Source of the DNA: Candidatus Staskawiczbacteria bacterium
GTDB lineage: Bacteria; Patescibacteriota; Minisyncoccia; Minisyncoccales; Staskawiczbacteraceae
Direction of reading: 5' to 3'
DNA length: 64,000 nucleotides
NCBI GenBank assembly: GCA_041661545.1
Contig: JBAZUH010000001.1
Coordinates: 83,877-147,876, forward strand
The notes beneath the pieces were generated by a model. That model made no database searches. It saw only the letters and a list, made by a program, of their open reading frames with translations, and had not been told where the DNA came from. Both the position numbers and the translations under genes were made by a program. Positions within the stretch are counted from its first letter, which is position 1; each line of letters opens with the position of its first letter. Shown here one piece after another: positions 47,622 to 55,543 of the stretch.

Positions 47622-48161
47622 ATGAATAAAATTAGAGAAAATATATTGTTACTTCTAATGGGCGGTTTGGCCCTTGGGTGTAGTTATACGCCCCAAATGC
47701 AAGGTAGGGTGTTAAAAATGGCCTATAAAGAATGGAGAAAAATAAATCGTAAAGATCTTAAGAGAGGCATCGATTATTTATATAGATTGAAATATATTGA
47801 TAAAAAAGGCGGTGGAAATGATATAGGCGATTTAACACTAACACAAAAGGGCAGATTAAAATCTTTAGACTTTCGACTTAATAATTTAAAAAATCAAAAA
47901 GAGAAATGGGATGGGAAATGGAGAATGGTTGCTTTTGATATTCCAGAAAAATATAAACAAGGAAGAGATGCCTTGCGCAATAAATTGAAAAGTATTGGGT
48001 TCCGTGAATTGCAGAAGAGCGTTTTTATTGTACCTTACAACTGCAAAGAGGAAATAGTGCTTTTGGTTGAATTGTTCAAATTGGGAAAATATGTTCGTTT
48101 TGGAGTTTTGGAATTTATTGATAACGAAAATTATTTGAAAAGTTTATATAAAATTAGTTAA
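47622..48161 (+). CDS. PaaX-like / winged-helix regulator family protein
   Basis: WDGKWRMVAFDIPEKYKQGRDALRNKLKSIGFRELQKSVFIVP motif. Confidence 0.5.
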   Translation: MNKIRENILLLLMGGLALGCSYTPQMQGRVLKMAYKEWRKINRKDLKRGIDYLYRLKYIDKKGGGNDIGDLTLTQKGRLKSLDFRLNNLKNQKEKWDGKWRMVAFDIPEKYKQGRDALRNKLKSIGFRELQKSVFIVPYNCKEEIVLLVELFKLGKYVRFGVLEFIDNENYLKSLYKIS

Positions 48162-48178
48162 AAGAGCTAAAAGATTTA

Positions 48179-48215
48179 CATCATAATTTACGCTATCGCT
48201 GAAAATGTGATGTTG
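48179..48215 (+). repeat. 37-bp direct repeat, copy 2
   Basis: Identical to 47528-47564. Confidence 0.8.
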
Positions 48216-48257
48216 GGGAGGACATGAAATACCTAAATTTAAATTGTAAAATAAACA

Positions 48258-48962
48258 ATGAAAATTCCTAATCTTAATGAAGAGAAAAAGTTATGGAAGA
48301 AAGGTTTTAAATATGTGGTTGGCCTAGATGAAGTGGGCAGGGGTCCGTTAGCTGGGCCAGTTGTAGCCGTAGCAGTAATGTTACGGAATTTTCAATTTTC
48401 AATTTCTAATTTTCAATCAATTTCTAAAAATCCAATTTTCAAGAAAATTAACGACTCAAAAAAAATGACGGAGAAAGACAGAGAAGAAGTTTATAATGCA
48501 CTAATAAAAAACACCGACATAAAGTGGGGAATTGGCGTTGTTTCAGAAAAAGTTATTGATAAAATTAATATTTTAGAAGCAACAAAATTGGCAATGAAGA
48601 AAGCTGTTTTTGCACTTTCCCCAAAAATTGACGACCGTCAATTTTTGGGGAAGAATGTTTTTTTACTTTTAGATGGAAATTTTGGTGTAGATTTTAATGA
48701 AGTCGCCTCCGCCAAAGGCTTCGGCGGACCGAAGCAAAAACCAATAATAAAAGGGGACGAGAAAGTTATATCAATTGCAATGGCCAGCATAATTGCAAAG
48801 GTGACACGAGATAGAATGATGCAAAAATTTCATAAAAAATATCCTAAATATGGTTTTGATAAAAACAAAGGTTATGGCACAGCTTTTCATATAGAGATGA
48901 TAGAAAAACATGGCCCTTGTAAAATTCATAGAAAATCATTTTACCCTGTTTCTAAATTTTAA
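48258..48962 (+). CDS. rnhB: Ribonuclease HII (with in-frame repeat inserts)
   Basis: GLDEVGRGPLAGPVV, NDSKK, GDEKV..ASIIAK. Confidence 0.9.
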   Translation: MKIPNLNEEKKLWKKGFKYVVGLDEVGRGPLAGPVVAVAVMLRNFQFSISNFQSISKNPIFKKINDSKKMTEKDREEVYNALIKNTDIKWGIGVVSEKVIDKINILEATKLAMKKAVFALSPKIDDRQFLGKNVFLLLDGNFGVDFNEVASAKGFGGPKQKPIIKGDEKVISIAMASIIAKVTRDRMMQKFHKKYPKYGFDKNKGYGTAFHIEMIEKHGPCKIHRKSFYPVSKF

Positions 48963-49046
48963 CCGGGTGAATAGTTATTCACACTTGACCTATTGCTTTA
49001 AAAATTTGATAAGTTTAAAATAATATAATATCAATATTTTTATTTA

Positions 49047-51587
49047 ATGAAAAATATAAAATTTAATTTAATTTTATTTGTAGCTATTATTTTAGTCGCT
49101 GTTTTTGGTTTACAATTTGCATCGGCGGCTTTAGTTGTTTGGTCTAACGAGTCACCAGACATATCGACATTCAATTTGGAAGTAAAAGAGACCAATGGCA
49201 ATGAGCTAACAGGAGAATTTACTATTACTAATAGAGAAGATTATTATCTAAGTGATTTAAACTACGAAATCAAATTATTTAAAGGTAACTCGTATTCTGA
49301 TTTTAAGTTGATGGATGTGTTGGTTAATAAAGAAATATTTTTTGTAGCTCCTAGAGACACAATTACAAAAACTTTTAAATATACATATCCTAAAAATATT
49401 ACTGCAGGAGATTATATTTTAAGGGCACAAGTTATGACTTCTAGGGGCAGAGAATTGCCATGGGACGATTTAATAATTCAACTATCTGGTGAAAATAAAT
49501 TTTTAGATATTCTTTCAGAATATTCTAAGGTTATAGTTGATGTTCCTATAAAGCCACAGAAATTTGAAAATAATGCAAGCACAACCAATCAATCAGCGCC
49601 CGCGCCAATTAATGAATCAGAACAAGAAAGTAATAATTCTAGAACAAGTAGCAGTAGTAGTGAGGCAGCTCCCAGCGTTGGTGAACCAGATATTGATTTG
49701 CCCGAGAATGTTTTAACACCTCCGCTGGTAACGAAGCCATCAACTCAAAAAGTAACACCGTCTTCTGACGTGGTGATTTTGCAACCAATAAAAGGGCGCA
49801 CTGAATATAAGCCCAACCCTGAAGGGTTGATTATTGAAGGAGATGCTCCTTTAGTTGTAGGCGAAGGAGGTGGTCGCCAGGTGGCTACACCTTTAGAAGG
49901 AATTTTAGTATCTGCCGGAGATGATATCTATGCGTATTTAAAAGTTAATAATCCGGGAGAGGCAATTACGGTTAAACCACACATAAAGATTTTTAATAGA
50001 CAGACTAATATGTCTATAGCAAAAGAATATGACGATGCAGAAATAACTTTTGCTAAAGGAGAGACCAAAGAAATTAGTTTGACTCTTCCAAAATTAGAAA
50101 AACCAGAATCATATTTAGCCGAAGTAAAATTTTATAAAAATAACGAACAAGTTTCTGGGATTCAATATTTTAGATGGGTGGTTAGGGGGTTAGGTGGAAA
50201 AATTTTATATGTTAAGGCTGACAAAGATTATTATAATGCGGGCGATAGCATCAATTTAAAAATTCAAATAGCCGGTCCTGCTGACACTTCAAACCCAGGC
50301 ATGGGCCAATTAGAAGTATCTGTTAATAGAAAAATTGGAGGAAATATTGCTAAAGTTTCGCAAGAAGTGCCGTTGGGGCAAGGAGTGTTTTCAGCAGATA
50401 TATCAATTCCGGTTAAGTTGGATGTTGTTGCGCCAGTTATTAACGTTAAATTAATGAAAGACGGCCAAATTTTGGATGAACAGAATATAAATTTGCCAGT
50501 TTTTTCAAAAGAAGCTAAAAAAATAAAACAAACACAAATTATCGTTATTGTTGCCGTGGTCGCAGTTATACTTTTATTAATAATTATAACTATTTGGATA
50601 TTTTATAAAAGAAAATATAAGGGCTCTATTCAAACCAAAAAGTTTTTATTAATTTTAGTAATTTCTTTATCCTTTTTTGTGCCTATTTTATCAAATGCTG
50701 CTTTTACTGAATTTGAAATTTGGTCAAATCAGGTTCAAGAAAATTTTAGGCAACATTTAAAGGACGTTGCGGATGCTTTTTGGGGGTCTATGAATCTTTT
50801 TGAGGTTTGTGTTTCCCCTGACAATTACGTGACTCAAGTTCAGCCCAATGGAGTTTTGCCAATTAATGGAGATATGGTTTCTGATTTATGTGTTAACTCA
50901 GTTAATCCAGTAGATATGCAACATACTTTAACTCCAAAAGCAGGCCCTGAGTGTGTAACATTTAATAATTCTATTTCAGGTGGTTCGCATGATTCAAACG
51001 ATATATATTCTTGGCCGATTGTGGAGGTGGATGTTAAGGGTAACACGACACTTGAGTTTCATCATCAATTACAAATGCCCGTTAACATACCGTGTGGAGT
51101 ATATAATTTAAATACACACTGGGAAATGCCAGTTTATGAAAAAGGTTCTAGCACTCCAATCCAAACAGATGTAGGAGATAAAGATATAACCGTTATTGTT
51201 GGAAGGGCGGGCGTTTGTGGTTCTGCCAATGGAGTGATTAGCACCACCGCACCAACTTCTAATTTATGCGCTGACGGCAGGGCATCTAATGTTGCGAGCA
51301 TAGAAAATAACTGGAGATGGACTTGCGATACAAGCGATCAATGTGCAGGGCCGGATGCTGAGTGTTCGGCTCCTAAAGTGGCTGTTACAGTTGAATGCGG
51401 AGCAAATGCCAAAACATATCTAGCTACCGATACAAGTTTTAAGGGAGATTTTTGTACTAATGGTGTAATCTCAAACCCATCTAATCCTCCTTTTCCAACA
51501 TCTGTTAATCCAACAACAACTTGGATTTGCCCAGGCTCTCCAAGTGTAGAATGTAGGGCGGTTATTTCTGGTGGTAGTTGTTTATAA
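49047..51587 (+). CDS. Large surface protein 1 (two modules joined by an internal TM and a second signal-like segment; C-terminal Cys-domain repeats)
   Basis: N-terminal signal/TM, internal TM near aa 505-530, second signal-like segment near aa 540-562, two C-terminal CG...C..G...W.C...C domains. Confidence 0.75.
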   Translation: MKNIKFNLILFVAIILVAVFGLQFASAALVVWSNESPDISTFNLEVKETNGNELTGEFTITNREDYYLSDLNYEIKLFKGNSYSDFKLMDVLVNKEIFFVAPRDTITKTFKYTYPKNITAGDYILRAQVMTSRGRELPWDDLIIQLSGENKFLDILSEYSKVIVDVPIKPQKFENNASTTNQSAPAPINESEQESNNSRTSSSSSEAAPSVGEPDIDLPENVLTPPLVTKPSTQKVTPSSDVVILQPIKGRTEYKPNPEGLIIEGDAPLVVGEGGGRQVATPLEGILVSAGDDIYAYLKVNNPGEAITVKPHIKIFNRQTNMSIAKEYDDAEITFAKGETKEISLTLPKLEKPESYLAEVKFYKNNEQVSGIQYFRWVVRGLGGKILYVKADKDYYNAGDSINLKIQIAGPADTSNPGMGQLEVSVNRKIGGNIAKVSQEVPLGQGVFSADISIPVKLDVVAPVINVKLMKDGQILDEQNINLPVFSKEAKKIKQTQIIVIVAVVAVILLLIIITIWIFYKRKYKGSIQTKKFLLILVISLSFFVPILSNAAFTEFEIWSNQVQENFRQHLKDVADAFWGSMNLFEVCVSPDNYVTQVQPNGVLPINGDMVSDLCVNSVNPVDMQHTLTPKAGPECVTFNNSISGGSHDSNDIYSWPIVEVDVKGNTTLEFHHQLQMPVNIPCGVYNLNTHWEMPVYEKGSSTPIQTDVGDKDITVIVGRAGVCGSANGVISTTAPTSNLCADGRASNVASIENNWRWTCDTSDQCAGPDAECSAPKVAVTVECGANAKTYLATDTSFKGDFCTNGVISNPSNPPFPTSVNPTTTWICPGSPSVECRAVISGGSCL

Positions 51588-51623
51588 TTTAAAAAAGTTA
51601 AATATCTCTAACGGTTAAATTTA

Positions 51624-53267
51624 ATGAAACAAAAGAATATTTTATTAATATTGTTACCCCTATTGTTTTTAGGTTTGTTTTTATGTATTGATAAAATTTC
51701 GGCATCATATGTTAATCAGGGAGATTATTATGATAATGATCCAAACAATGATATTGATGCATATGCTTATCCCACTTCGCACAATTATGAATACTCTAGT
51801 TGGAGTTTTGATAGTTTGCCAGACGGAATGTATCCTCATATGTATGGAAGTTGTTCTAATAGTGCTTGCAAAGATTGGTACGAAGCCTTTAATGGTAGTG
51901 CCATAGATGAATGGCTGACTAGTGGGGGGAGTATTCCTTGGGATGAGAAACTTTGGAAAAATTATAATATTACTGTCCGCGGTTCTACTAACTATAATTA
52001 TTATGGCCCAGGTTATTATATGTTTAGAATAGAATATCCAGAAGAAACTTATGATAGTGCACTAGGCGCTTATAATAATTATGGGAATGTGTATTTTTAT
52101 GATTATAGGCATTGGGATAGTTTTAATAGCTCTTATTATGGTTATGTTAAAAATGCCAATGTGCCAGTTTTGTTAACAGGCACAGGATATTCAGATCAAA
52201 CGGTTTCCTTAAGAATGACTTGGAGTTTTGGTTGGAATGTTCAGAGCTATGACGGGTTCTACCCAAATAGTTATATTCCTTTTAATGTTTATTATACTCC
52301 TATAGCTCATAATGGAGTATGCGGAGATTTAAATGGAACTTTTACTGAATCTACTAGGCCTAATCAGGGCATAGCTTGTTTGAGTTGGCCTTATGTGACA
52401 ACTGTTGAGTTTGCTACAGTGGATAATCCAACAACTACTTGGACTTGTGAAGGAACTTTAGGTGGAGCAGATCAAGGCTGTGCTATGAAAATAAAAGTTG
52501 ATGGTGTTTGTAACTCGTCAACTAATGGCCATCAATTAAGCATACAGCCCAGCGGTGACGAACTTTGCAGTAAAGGTGCTCCAACAATGGTTGCGGGCGA
52601 CGGGTCTTTGCAAAGACCATGGCAGTGGGGATGTCTTGGCATTAATGGGGGAACTAGCACCAGCATCACAGCTTGTTCGGCAACTATTAAAAAAGATGGA
52701 AAATGCGGAACATTTACTAATGGCGGATCTTTTCTCTCAGCTCCAAGTGGCAACAACAATCTTTGTGATTATGGAACAGCTACAGCTGTAACAGGAACTG
52801 GAGCGGTTGGAAACCCTTGGACATGGAAATGCAACAGCCCTGATGGGGGAGCTCAATCTCTAACATGCACAGCAAATGCTTCTGGAACTTCAGTAGATGG
52901 TGTTTGTGGTCCAGCAGCTACAACTTATAATCCTGGGGTGACTTCTTTTTCTGGTAATCTTTGTACAATAGGAATCGCTAGCCCTACGCCGTCTTTTCCA
53001 ACTGCTAGTGATCCTATAAAAACCTGGACGTGTTCAAATGGAAGTGGAAATAATAGCCCCACTTGTACTGCAGTTTTAACTGTAGATGGAGTTTGTGGCC
53101 CTGCCGCAAAAGCTTATCCCCTTGATGATTTATCATTCCCAGACGGAGATTATTGTAGCTCTGGAACAATGTTGACAGATAGTCAAACATATTATTACAG
53201 AGTTAGCGCTATTAACTCTGTTAACCCCGGACCTGCTTCTGCGGTAAAATCAATATCCACGCCATAA
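51624..53267 (+). CDS. Large surface protein 2 (4.5 Cys-domain repeats plus an orphan FN3 C-terminal fragment)
   Basis: Signal peptide, repeats starting GVCG, last 30 aa TDSQTYYYRVSAINSVNPGPAS. Confidence 0.75.
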   Translation: MKQKNILLILLPLLFLGLFLCIDKISASYVNQGDYYDNDPNNDIDAYAYPTSHNYEYSSWSFDSLPDGMYPHMYGSCSNSACKDWYEAFNGSAIDEWLTSGGSIPWDEKLWKNYNITVRGSTNYNYYGPGYYMFRIEYPEETYDSALGAYNNYGNVYFYDYRHWDSFNSSYYGYVKNANVPVLLTGTGYSDQTVSLRMTWSFGWNVQSYDGFYPNSYIPFNVYYTPIAHNGVCGDLNGTFTESTRPNQGIACLSWPYVTTVEFATVDNPTTTWTCEGTLGGADQGCAMKIKVDGVCNSSTNGHQLSIQPSGDELCSKGAPTMVAGDGSLQRPWQWGCLGINGGTSTSITACSATIKKDGKCGTFTNGGSFLSAPSGNNNLCDYGTATAVTGTGAVGNPWTWKCNSPDGGAQSLTCTANASGTSVDGVCGPAATTYNPGVTSFSGNLCTIGIASPTPSFPTASDPIKTWTCSNGSGNNSPTCTAVLTVDGVCGPAAKAYPLDDLSFPDGDYCSSGTMLTDSQTYYYRVSAINSVNPGPASAVKSISTP

Positions 53268-53272
53268 TTATT

Positions 53273-55543
53273 ATGATTAATATTAAAAAAACAATTATAA
53301 CCGCCGAAGTAATAATTTTTACGATAGTTTTTAGTTTTTTTATTTTTGGAGATGTTTATGCTGATGAATCTGTTACATGGGGTGGTACTAGCACTGGTAA
53401 TGCGGCTTGTGCTGCTATAGGTAGAAATTGTACCACGGCCTATACATTAACTAACACAGTAATTCCTTGTGATCGCAATTGGTACACGGGTGGTCATGCA
53501 ACGTGTGCAAGTTCTGTAGTTGGTGTGGGTACTACTTGGATTCTTGATTCTTTTGGTAATAGTCGTACTAATACTGGTAACGCAGCTTGTGCCGCCATAG
53601 GCAGAAATTGTATTAAAGCATACAACTATAGTGGAGTATTACAAACTAATTGTACTTCTAGTACTATTGGTGGCACTGCCTTGTGTGAAAGTTCTGTAGT
53701 TGGTGTGGGTACTACTTGGACCAACACTTCTACTGGTAATGCAGCTTGTACTGCTATAGGCAAAACTTGTAATACAGCATACAACTATAATGGAGTATTA
53801 AAAACCTGTAGCACTAGTAGTAGTGGAGGAACTGTTTTGTGCAATGTCCCAATTACGGTGACATGCTCGGCAGATAAAACATCAGCGTTGTTAAACACGC
53901 CAGTTGTTTGGACAGCAGTAGCTTCTGGAGGCTCTGGCTCATATACATATTCTTGGTCTGGAACAGATAGTCTTTCTGGATCAACGGTGTCTGTTAGTAA
54001 ATCTTATCAAAGCGTTGGCACAAAAACAGCTAGCGTTATAGCAACTTCTGGTGGCAATAGTAGTCCTGCTACTTCTTGTTCTAATAATGTGAACGTTTAT
54101 TCTCTTGGAGCGCCGGGTGCACCAACTGGGTTGGACGGAAGTTTTTTTAATTCTGCAATGAATATATTTTGGACAGCGCCTTCAAGCGACGGAGGGAGCG
54201 CAATTACAGGTTATAAAATTGAAAGGAGCACAGATGGAATTAATTGGACTGAATTAGTTGCTAATACTGGAAACACTAATACAACATATTCAGATAATAT
54301 AACTTCAGGGTTAACTCTTGATAATGTAGACGGCGCAACTGCAACTTGGAGGTGCGCAGGACTTTGTGGGGTAACTCCAATTTGCACTGCTACAAGAAAT
54401 ATAGGTTGTGGAACGTTAGGCGCAACAGGTGATGGCAGATTTTATGAAGATGGTACTACCGCATGGCCAGTAGGTACTTTTTGTTCAGTGGGATCGTATC
54501 CTGTTATCGATGATGGCTATACAACTGAAATACCCGGAGGTCCGGGTTTCCCAATTGTCACTAGTACTTCTACAACTTGGAAATGTTATACCGCCAGCAC
54601 GCAAAGTTATTCTGACAGATGTATTGCCAATCTTAAAATTAATGGTCTTTGCGGGCCAGCCGGCGAATTAGAAGTAGATGGTGGTACTGCCTATTCAGAA
54701 ACAGATGTATTTCCAAAGGGTGCATATTGTGAAACCTCCAGTAATTATATAAATCCAAGCCCAAATCCTCTTTTATTAACTGGTTCAAGAGCTACATGGG
54801 TTTGTCCAGGGGCAAACACGGGCGAAGATAGTGGCACTTGTTTAGCAAAAAAAGCAACCGGGCCTTCTGTTAGTAATCCAAGCGCAAGATTAGACAATTG
54901 TTATTCTGATCCTACTAATCCGCCCGCTGGAACTGGTGGAATATATTTTAGTTGGACTTATAATGACAACGATGCAGGAAATACTATTCCTCAAGAATCA
55001 TCTATATTAGAGATATATAACAATAGTAATCTCGTGCCAAGTAATTTAGTTTATCAAAGCCCCCCTAGTTTTAATGCTACTGCTAAGACAATATATGTTG
55101 GAGGTGCAGGAGACATACCATTTAAATCAAGTGGTTCATATTATTGGCGAGTGATGGTTTCTAATAGCAGGGATGATTCTGATTGGTCCGCTACTCAATC
55201 TTTTACAACTTCAGCTCATGCTTGGCCATATGCAGTTATTGATGTTAGCCCCGAACCTCATATAGTTAAAAAACAAATCTGCATTAGTGCCGTAAAGTCA
55301 GCTTGTTACGATGGTGCAGATTGTGATTACACGTGGACATTAGATTATAATCTTAAAAATCTTACGCCTAGCAAAGTAAAAGAACCAAGAATATGCTACG
55401 CCTATCAAACTATTGGGCAGCGCACAGAAGAATTAATGGTATGCGACAGTCATACAAACCCCCATTGTTGCTCGGCCACAGCTAGCTTTAATGTGAAGAA
55501 TACTTCAAACGTGCCACAGTGGAGAGAGATATCGCCGTTTTAG
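53273..55543 (+). CDS. Large surface protein 3 (signal, 3 Cys repeats, PKD-like domain, truncated FN3, Cys-domain repeats)
   Basis: Signal peptide, three ~58-aa repeats, PKD-like SGGSGSYTYSWSG, FN3 N-part, then the Cys-domain C-part. Confidence 0.75.
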   Translation: MINIKKTIITAEVIIFTIVFSFFIFGDVYADESVTWGGTSTGNAACAAIGRNCTTAYTLTNTVIPCDRNWYTGGHATCASSVVGVGTTWILDSFGNSRTNTGNAACAAIGRNCIKAYNYSGVLQTNCTSSTIGGTALCESSVVGVGTTWTNTSTGNAACTAIGKTCNTAYNYNGVLKTCSTSSSGGTVLCNVPITVTCSADKTSALLNTPVVWTAVASGGSGSYTYSWSGTDSLSGSTVSVSKSYQSVGTKTASVIATSGGNSSPATSCSNNVNVYSLGAPGAPTGLDGSFFNSAMNIFWTAPSSDGGSAITGYKIERSTDGINWTELVANTGNTNTTYSDNITSGLTLDNVDGATATWRCAGLCGVTPICTATRNIGCGTLGATGDGRFYEDGTTAWPVGTFCSVGSYPVIDDGYTTEIPGGPGFPIVTSTSTTWKCYTASTQSYSDRCIANLKINGLCGPAGELEVDGGTAYSETDVFPKGAYCETSSNYINPSPNPLLLTGSRATWVCPGANTGEDSGTCLAKKATGPSVSNPSARLDNCYSDPTNPPAGTGGIYFSWTYNDNDAGNTIPQESSILEIYNNSNLVPSNLVYQSPPSFNATAKTIYVGGAGDIPFKSSGSYYWRVMVSNSRDDSDWSATQSFTTSAHAWPYAVIDVSPEPHIVKKQICISAVKSACYDGADCDYTWTLDYNLKNLTPSKVKEPRICYAYQTIGQRTEELMVCDSHTNPHCCSATASFNVKNTSNVPQWREISPF

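Follow-up and report, generated by a model that had tools for sequence, protein, structure and literature searches.

Reciprocal splitting of two domains between adjacent surface-protein genes of Candidatus Staskawiczbacteria: indications of an old rearrangement and a putative docking pair

Introduction

In a stretch of 64,000 nucleotides from a Candidatus Staskawiczbacteria bacterium (contig JBAZUH010000001.1 of assembly GCA_041661545.1, positions 83,877 to 147,876 of the forward strand; hereafter the window, with positions counted from its first letter), two adjacent open reading frames (ORFs), here called ORF1 and ORF2, carry complementary halves of the same two domains: a fibronectin type III (FN3) domain and a small domain with four cysteines (Cys domain). 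ORF1 ends with the first half of a Cys domain, A1, followed by the last two strands of the FN3 domain, F2; in ORF2 the first five strands of the FN3 domain, F1, are followed by the second half of a Cys domain, A2. Comparison of the sequences among lineages indicates that this split layout is an old, fixed rearrangement going back to a single ancestral event, and not a recent gene insertion. The joint explanation that we find best, and to which we attach moderate confidence, is that one ancestral insertion created the pair and that the two products dock in trans in a complex that we infer from their sequences. That this complex is a natural double split-domain lock, in which two exported chains are joined at a four-way junction where the FN3 domain and the small disulfide domain are each rebuilt, is a possibility put forward tentatively.

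Two Domains Split at Complementary Points

The elements of the pair, all on the forward (+) strand, are listed below in order of position.

51624..53267 (+): ORF1, 547 aa, with a signal peptide, a unique Tyr-rich N-domain, four intact Cys domains, A1, F2 and the stop codon
52308..53072 (+): four intact 61-residue four-cysteine domains, ORF1 residues 229-483, each matching positions 1-60 of our own profile at 47-55 bits
53082..53174 (+): A1, Cys domain 5 cut to its first half, ORF1 residues 487-517, bearing the first two cysteines; profile positions 1-34 of 61, 25.3 bits
53175..53264 (+): F2, FN3 strands F and G, ORF1 residues 518-547, which form the ORF1 C-terminus; FN3 profile positions 62-95 of 95
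53268..53272 (+): spacer of 5 nt between the ORF1 stop codon and the ORF2 ATG
53273..55543 (+): ORF2, 756 aa, with a signal peptide, a lineage-variable module, F1, A2, further Cys domains and a conserved C-terminal module
53372..54097 (+): variable module, ORF2 residues 34-275; three four-cysteine repeats (~50 aa each), then a PKD-like domain
54113..54313 (+): F1, FN3 strands A to E, ORF2 residues 281-347; FN3 profile positions 1-65 of 95, 69.9 bits
54314..54397 (+): A2, the missing second half of that Cys domain, ORF2 residues 348-375; positions 33-61 of the 61 in the Cys profile
54455..54850 (+): two further divergent Cys domains, ORF2 residues 395-526; 15.2 and 24.9 bits on our own Cys profile
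54860..55540 (+): conserved C-terminal module of ORF2, Ig/FN3-like plus PKD-like (Ig_Rha78A_N, 29.8 bits), ending in VPQWREISPF (55514-55540)

The FN3 domain was analysed with a profile of 95 positions, built from 434 intact repeats among the database matches. The match of F1 covers ORF2 residues 281-343 and that of F2 covers ORF1 residues 513-546 (27.4 bits), and when the two are joined the rebuilt domain spans positions 1-95 at 107.9 bits. Neither native ORF1 nor native ORF2 gives a match to Pfam fn3 (PF00041); in the 377-aa protein obtained by rejoining the halves, a single match to this family crosses the junction without interruption (residues 294-370, 26.8 bits, with the gathering threshold at 25). 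Aligned by BLASTP with the intact FN3 repeats of the database protein P0003, the rebuilt domain runs continuously through the junction, at 57-63% identity and with a 3-residue loop insertion only, and the break falls in the E-F loop. Neither chain therefore holds the seven-strand sandwich, whose strands A-E lie in ORF2 and F-G in ORF1, and the whole 64-kb window has no FN3 signal besides F1 and F2.

The Cys domain behaves in the same way. On a profile of 61 positions, built from about 100 repeats, the fifth copy of ORF1 breaks off at position 34 after four full copies, and the missing part is found in A2. Rebuilt from A1 and A2, the domain matches positions 1-61 at 47.8 bits, within the range of the intact copies, and contains all four invariant cysteines and the one invariant Trp. 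An AlphaFold2 (AF2) model of Cys-domain copy 4, with a predicted local distance difference test (pLDDT) score of 92.5, places the break between strands 2 and 3, so both domains are split in loops. The 61-residue repeat, with the consensus ..NG.CG....LC..G......W.C.G.NGG....C.A, has no match in Pfam or NCBIfam and no relative in a Foldseek search of the PDB (best E = 4.6). In surface proteins of bacteria of the candidate phyla radiation (CPR) it is abundant, with up to ~17 copies per protein, and it also occurs in ORF2 and in ORF0, the ORF upstream of ORF1.

The initial annotation had read the pair as a circularly permuted gene integrated in-frame inside a surface-protein gene. Its ORF coordinates and its description of the sequence are correct, with the junction microhomology as the only exception, and the profiles confirm its assignment of the domain halves. 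Deleting 53175-54313 stays in frame and leaves a single ORF of 926 aa, while joining 53273-54313 to 53175-53267 gives the 377-aa ORF with an intact FN3 domain; the cut may shift by one codon to either side with both products unchanged, since a Thr codon stands at both junctions. In the N-terminal part of ORF2, the three Cys repeats are discernible directly in the sequence, and the PKD-like domain is weakly backed: PKD_4 reaches 19.9 bits, below the Pfam cut-off of 27, and the region has 50-58% BLASTP identity with proteins annotated as PKD.

An assembly chimera, considered as a source of the junctions, is ruled out by an independent contig that is identical across the left junction and by the recurrence of the junctions in orthologues. 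Over 48394-53538, a span that takes in the A1-F2 junction and the first part of ORF2, this Logan contig (SRR18595301, L001) agrees with the window at 100% identity; its end lies within the internal repeats of ORF2. P0121, a protein of a Candidatus Staskawiczbacteria metagenome-assembled genome (MAG) (WC711_00660; contig of 737,971 bp), is identical to ORF1. The Cys repeats at the start of ORF2 (53380-53840) contain near-identical DNA, 53503-53538 and 53683-53718 agreeing in 35 of 36 bases; the end of the Logan contig coincides exactly with this repeat, which is thus a likely assembly break point.

The Same Junctions Recur in Diverged Lineages

Genes of the ORF1 type with the same A1-F2 tail are present in four lineages, i.e., that of the window and three others. 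In GCA_964998225.1 (L002), where the same synteny is found, the homologue (P0122) is 62% identical to ORF1 and ends ...CDSGTMLVNSQTYYYRVSAINS...ISTP. In a contig from JGI (L003), in which synteny is kept through L32-NusB-RNase III-S16, the homologue (P0125) is 39% identical and ends ...CTKGAIGVSGAKYFYRVSAINS...TTP; the ORF2 of this lineage, starting 19 nt downstream, encodes 1817 aa, with a signal peptide, ~830 aa of unrelated Ig-like repeats, and an FN3 A-E fragment fused to ...LALTNNATSTWLCKGTGCDATDDTCVATR and then to further Cys domains. Finally, in a Staskawiczbacteria bin with a different genomic neighbourhood (L005), a 547-aa ORF1 only 25% identical to that of the window ends ...FCSSGVVRLKSTYYYRVRATNAGG...TTPP and is followed, 4 nt later, by an ORF2 of 1620 aa with a signal peptide, ~110 aa and then F1-A2.

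The break points lie at matching places on the profiles. A1 covers positions 1-34 in L002, 1-29 in L003 and 2-29 in L005, and F1 covers 6-66 in L003 and 1-64 in L005; taken over all lineages, the end of F1 lies at 64-66 and the start of F2 at 59-67, and A1 ends at 29-34 and A2 starts at 33-37, which puts the FN3 break at 64-67 of 95 and the Cys-domain break at 29-37 of 61. Joining the halves again rebuilds both domains, with 73.7 bits for the FN3 domain and 33.0 bits for the Cys domain in L003, and 60.2 and 37.4 bits, respectively, in L005. This agreement indicates that the break points are homologous and derive from one ancestral event. The initial annotation had held that a split arrangement shared by relatives, with no intact version of either gene, would refute its proposal and leave an ancient fixed rearrangement as the only conclusion. 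This expectation is borne out in part: the relatives do share the split layout, from which only an old, fixed rearrangement can be concluded.

The DNA between the junctions is, instead, variable. Its length is 1.14 kb in the window, against 0.76 kb in L005 and 2.8 kb in L003, and its content is unrelated between these lineages; the variable module of the window is shared only with L002, and L003 and L005 have other domains there. The idea that the insert is a conserved, self-contained gene of ~370 aa is thus not sustained, as the piece from signal peptide to F1 ranges from ~110 aa (L005) to ~830 aa (L003). The F1 fragments of L003 (8900-9100) and L005 (6150-6300) also have an extra loop of ~10 residues with two cysteines (CEPTLDDPNC and CKPTFEDALC), which the window lacks.

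Between the window and L003, the neighbouring L32, NusB, RNase III and S16 are 87-92% identical, whereas ORF1 is 39.6% identical and ORF2 can be aligned only domain by domain. From these values the event predates a roughly genus-level divergence, and the locus evolves far faster than its surroundings. In a further locus (L006), whose RNase III is 83% identical to that of the window, quite different passenger domains occupy the same slot. A profile search with the four ORF1 sequences gave no further A1-F2 tails, and in a census based on the C-terminal motif of ORF2, which covered 5 loci in genome collections and 16 in metagenome collections, the split was seen only in L005 and in the known L003 contig. 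In all the known lineages the ORF1-type and ORF2-type genes are adjacent, and they were never met apart.

Large surface proteins of the window and of L003-L019, otherwise unrelated in their passenger domains, share a nearly invariant extreme C-terminus, (N/S)(V/L)P(Q/E)W(K/R)E(I/V)SPF-COOH. The proteins with this ending come from Staskawiczbacteria and from MAGs labelled Saccharibacteria and include both split and unsplit members of the family; the motif may be a sorting or anchoring signal.

Unsplit Relatives and the Origin of the Layout

Unsplit members of the family, namely P0126, P0127 and the genes of L004, consist of a signal peptide, a variable N-domain, many Cys domains and the same C-terminal module ending in PQW(R/K)E(I/V)SPF, and none of these genes contains an FN3 fragment. 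On another contig, the slot directly upstream of L32-NusB-RNase III-S16 is taken by P0127 (1183 aa), a distant member. The presence of an unsplit gene in this slot makes a single, old insertion of a permuted unit the simplest origin; multi-step routes need two independent and exactly complementary break points. In this scenario, a circularly permuted, unit-length gene for an FN3-terminated secreted protein (in the order F2-stop-start-signal peptide-X-F1) would have been inserted once into the sequence for a surface loop of a Cys domain, within a long Cys-repeat surface-protein gene; the layout would then have become fixed, and the module between the signal peptide and F1 would have been reshuffled afterwards.

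Constraint on the Halves and Proposed Docking

The half-domains are, to judge from their sequences, under constraint and not in decay. The F2 core Y.YRV.A.N is invariant in all four lineages, and F1 retains the Trp of strand B and the GY.IE motif. Moreover, F2 is the best-conserved segment of ORF1 in distant pairs: between the window and L005 its identity is 39%, against 25% for Cys domains 1-4 and 8% for the N-domain, and between L002 and L005 it is 55%, against 28% for the Cys domains. It is this conservation at long distance from which we infer that both domains would be rebuilt in trans by the two chains after secretion.

In the proposed mechanism, ORF1 and ORF2 would each be exported by means of their own signal peptide, after which the C-terminal F-G hairpin of ORF1 would complete the five-strand FN3 fragment of ORF2, and A1 would pair with A2 into a complete Cys domain. 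Since A1 runs straight into F2, and F1 straight into A2, the four chain ends would converge where the E-F loop of the FN3 domain lies beside the loop of the Cys domain, and the crossing chains could rebuild both domains simultaneously. The outcome would be a branched, two-armed surface complex in which ORF1, which has no C-terminal module of its own, would be tethered through the conserved C-terminal module of ORF2. Such a lock would be kept while both arms reshuffle freely, and would thus represent a genetically encoded docking module in ultra-small CPR bacteria, giving a branched, two-armed adhesin beyond what one linear gene could encode. In an AF2 model of native F1-A2, F1 has a pLDDT of ~80 and A2 of <50, with no alignment depth available for A2; this weakly suggests that A2 is not confidently packed within its own chain.

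Alternative Explanations

Two alternatives concern the way in which the layout arose. It could come from the recent integration of a small circular gene by recombination between two coding sites, perhaps still able to excise, as the initial annotation had proposed. The topology is exactly that of the insertion of one permuted unit, and the unsplit family member in the same slot on another contig also counts in its favour; the topological part of the proposal stands, whereas recent, active or excisable integration does not, and we regard it as very improbable. It is largely refuted by the recurrence of the junctions in four diverged lineages with ORF1 identities as low as 25%, and the spread in insert length, from 0.76 to 2.8 kb, is also against it. 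All four lineages with an ORF1-type gene carry the split, so no presence/absence polymorphism was seen among close relatives. Neither flanking att/attC repeats nor a target duplication were found at the junctions, the insert has the same GC content as its flanks, and no donor gene was found. The microhomology that had been described between the two junctions is at chance level: the junctions agree at 14 of 40 nt, where random pairs average 14.7, and an equally good match is reached by 72% of 40-nt window pairs drawn at random from the same genes. A multi-step origin, through tandem duplication and two deletions or through template switching into and out of a tandem array of FN3 genes, with selection retaining only exactly complementary break points, would suit a locus that is a hot spot of fusion, fission and replacement (ORF0 is one gene here and two in L003, and the slot differs in L006). 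It requires, however, at least two independent break points that complement each other exactly in two domains, and no intermediates emerged from searches by homology, by the N-domain or by the C-terminal motif; we consider it distinctly unlikely.

Other alternatives concern what the pair does now. The layout might be a fixed historical accident in which the chains do not interact and the half-domains are tolerated linkers and tails or form hybrid folds within each chain, A1 packing with the F-G hairpin and F1 being completed by the two strands of A2. Such a swap is geometrically conceivable, as both F2 and A2 are two-strand pieces, and these surface genes shuffle their domains freely. On the other hand, F1 and F2 keep the FN3-specific core consensus in all lineages, where a hybrid fold would be expected to drift, F2 is the segment of ORF1 that best withstands long divergence, the two genes are always found together and, as a minor point, AF2 gives no confident packing of A2 on F1; on balance this explanation seems to us rather unlikely. 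Hardly any credence is given to the possibility that ORF1 and ORF2 form one polypeptide, through recoding by read-through or frameshifting or through post-translational joining by an intein or a sortase. The very short spacer would invite it, but spacers of 5 nt in the window, 7 nt in L002, 19 nt in L003 and 4 nt in L005 place the two genes in different relative frames, and a relative frame that is not conserved argues against recoding. Furthermore, ORF2 begins with a signal peptide of its own in every lineage, and there are no matches to inteins, Hint domains or sortase motifs, the C-terminus of ORF1 reading ...ISTP in the sequence.

Several points weigh against the combination of a single ancestral insertion with docking in trans. 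The interaction of ORF1 with ORF2 is proposed from sequence; the signal peptides of ORF1, ORF2 and their homologues were called by eye, and a covalent disulfide linkage between A1 and A2, although possible, is a guess. F2 is short (30 aa), and its conservation could reflect another role. The lineages are only four, all from one candidate group, and the L002 sequence stops before F1; in the organism of the window, the right junction in ORF2 rests on the window itself and on the orthologues. As for the origin, a search with the rebuilt 377-aa protein did not find an intact donor with signal peptide, three Cys repeats, PKD and FN3 domains, and returned only proteins with FN3 repeats and PKD, none of which covered the three Cys repeats. 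No unsplit gene with the N-domain of ORF1 was found among 1.84 billion representative proteins, in which this domain matched only P0121, P0125 and one fragment of 145 aa.

Comparison With Known Systems

The ORF1-ORF2 layout belongs to none of the mechanistic families with which it was compared. In the insulin receptor, the insert lies within the domain FnIII-2 and the chains are disulfide-linked. [quoted passage not shown] In those receptors the insert domain is cleaved by furin into alpha and beta parts (PMC7039211); unlike here, there is one gene and one protease-cut precursor, in a eukaryote, with neither permutation nor a second split domain. Reassembly of FN3 from two separate fragments has been obtained experimentally with monobodies (Dutta, Batori, Koide & Koide 2005, cited and taken up again in PMC11666773), and in these systems too a domain cut in a loop reassembles from two polypeptides. 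Those, however, are laboratory constructs cut in other loops (in PMC11666773, the CD loop), whereas the present split is natural, falls in the E-F loop, involves two genes and is accompanied by the reciprocal split of a second domain.

In the donor-strand complementation of chaperone-usher pili, an incomplete Ig-like sandwich is completed by strands of another chain, as proposed for F1 and F2. There, a single N-terminal strand is donated with a dedicated chaperone and usher in diderm bacteria; here, two strands are missing, the donor would be a C-terminal hairpin, a second domain is reciprocally split, and no chaperone or usher genes are seen among the neighbours (RNase HII, L32, NusB, RNase III). 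The pair is also akin to cases of gene fission and circular permutation, in that an ancestral frame is now two genes and the order of domains is permuted with respect to intact relatives. To our knowledge, the known cases of gene fission split one protein once; here, two unrelated domains are split at complementary points, as one gene lies in permuted form within the other. The skin element in sigK and the nifD element likewise interrupt a coding gene with foreign DNA whose precise removal restores it, which is the topology seen here. Such elements excise, and they bring with them a site-specific recombinase and att repeats; the ORF1-ORF2 pair has no repeats, is fused in frame at both junctions and keeps a fixed layout in all its lineages. 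Split inteins do not fit either, as no intein family is among the Pfam matches and the ends are FN3 and Cys-domain halves. A reciprocal split of two domains between adjacent genes was not described in limited literature searches, which returned only work on split inteins.

The Locus and Its Neighbours

ORF1 and ORF2 are arranged head to tail, with the genes for RNase HII and ORF0 upstream and rpmF, nusB, rnc and rpsP downstream. A scan for promoters and terminators gave no signal above shuffled controls. The ORF2 protein was not found in a collection of 5.8 billion proteins by exact look-up and homology search, whereas ORF1 of the same contig is represented there from three sources; possibly ORF2 was annotated as a pseudogene or the gene was not called.

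49047-51587: ORF0, an 846-aa membrane or surface protein, upstream of ORF1

The counterpart of ORF0 in L003 consists of two genes (484 aa, 44% identity; 289 aa, 31% identity) and, judged by length, that on the contig of P0127 also consists of two (422 and 281 aa), so that an ORF0 fusion or fission lies directly beside the split pair. Upstream of the RNase HII gene, a small PaaX_M-like protein (47622-48161), whose position is kept in L002 and L004, has a weak Cas2-like match (21.3 bits, under the cut-off of 24.5). Rates of divergence among these neighbours are discordant: comparison of the window with L002 gives identities of 55% for RNase HII and 61% for the PaaX-like protein, but of 79% for ORF0 and 62% for ORF1, and comparison with L003 gives 66% for RNase HII but 40% for ORF1. 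Over 47622-53267, these values suggest that the surface-gene cluster has been exchanged laterally, or has recombined, between lineages.

Significance

Even if the two chains do not interact, the pair is a warning to annotators, as pipelines may flag such genes as frameshifted pseudogenes. If the chains do rebuild both domains, they would be a natural counterpart of engineered split-protein tags, and the F-G hairpin and the five-strand FN3 fragment, together with the Cys half-domains, are a candidate small protein-docking pair. The locus would also show, in a clean and datable case, how circular permutation and gene fission can arise in one step, and it would mean that a gene landing permuted inside another can be rescued, and then kept, as the broken domains reunite. 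CPR bacteria are known to have large extracellular proteins that are rich in Cys, vary among strains and are thought to serve in attachment (PMC4736985), and the pair described here may point to how these bacteria build and diversify surface proteins that are probably used for host attachment.

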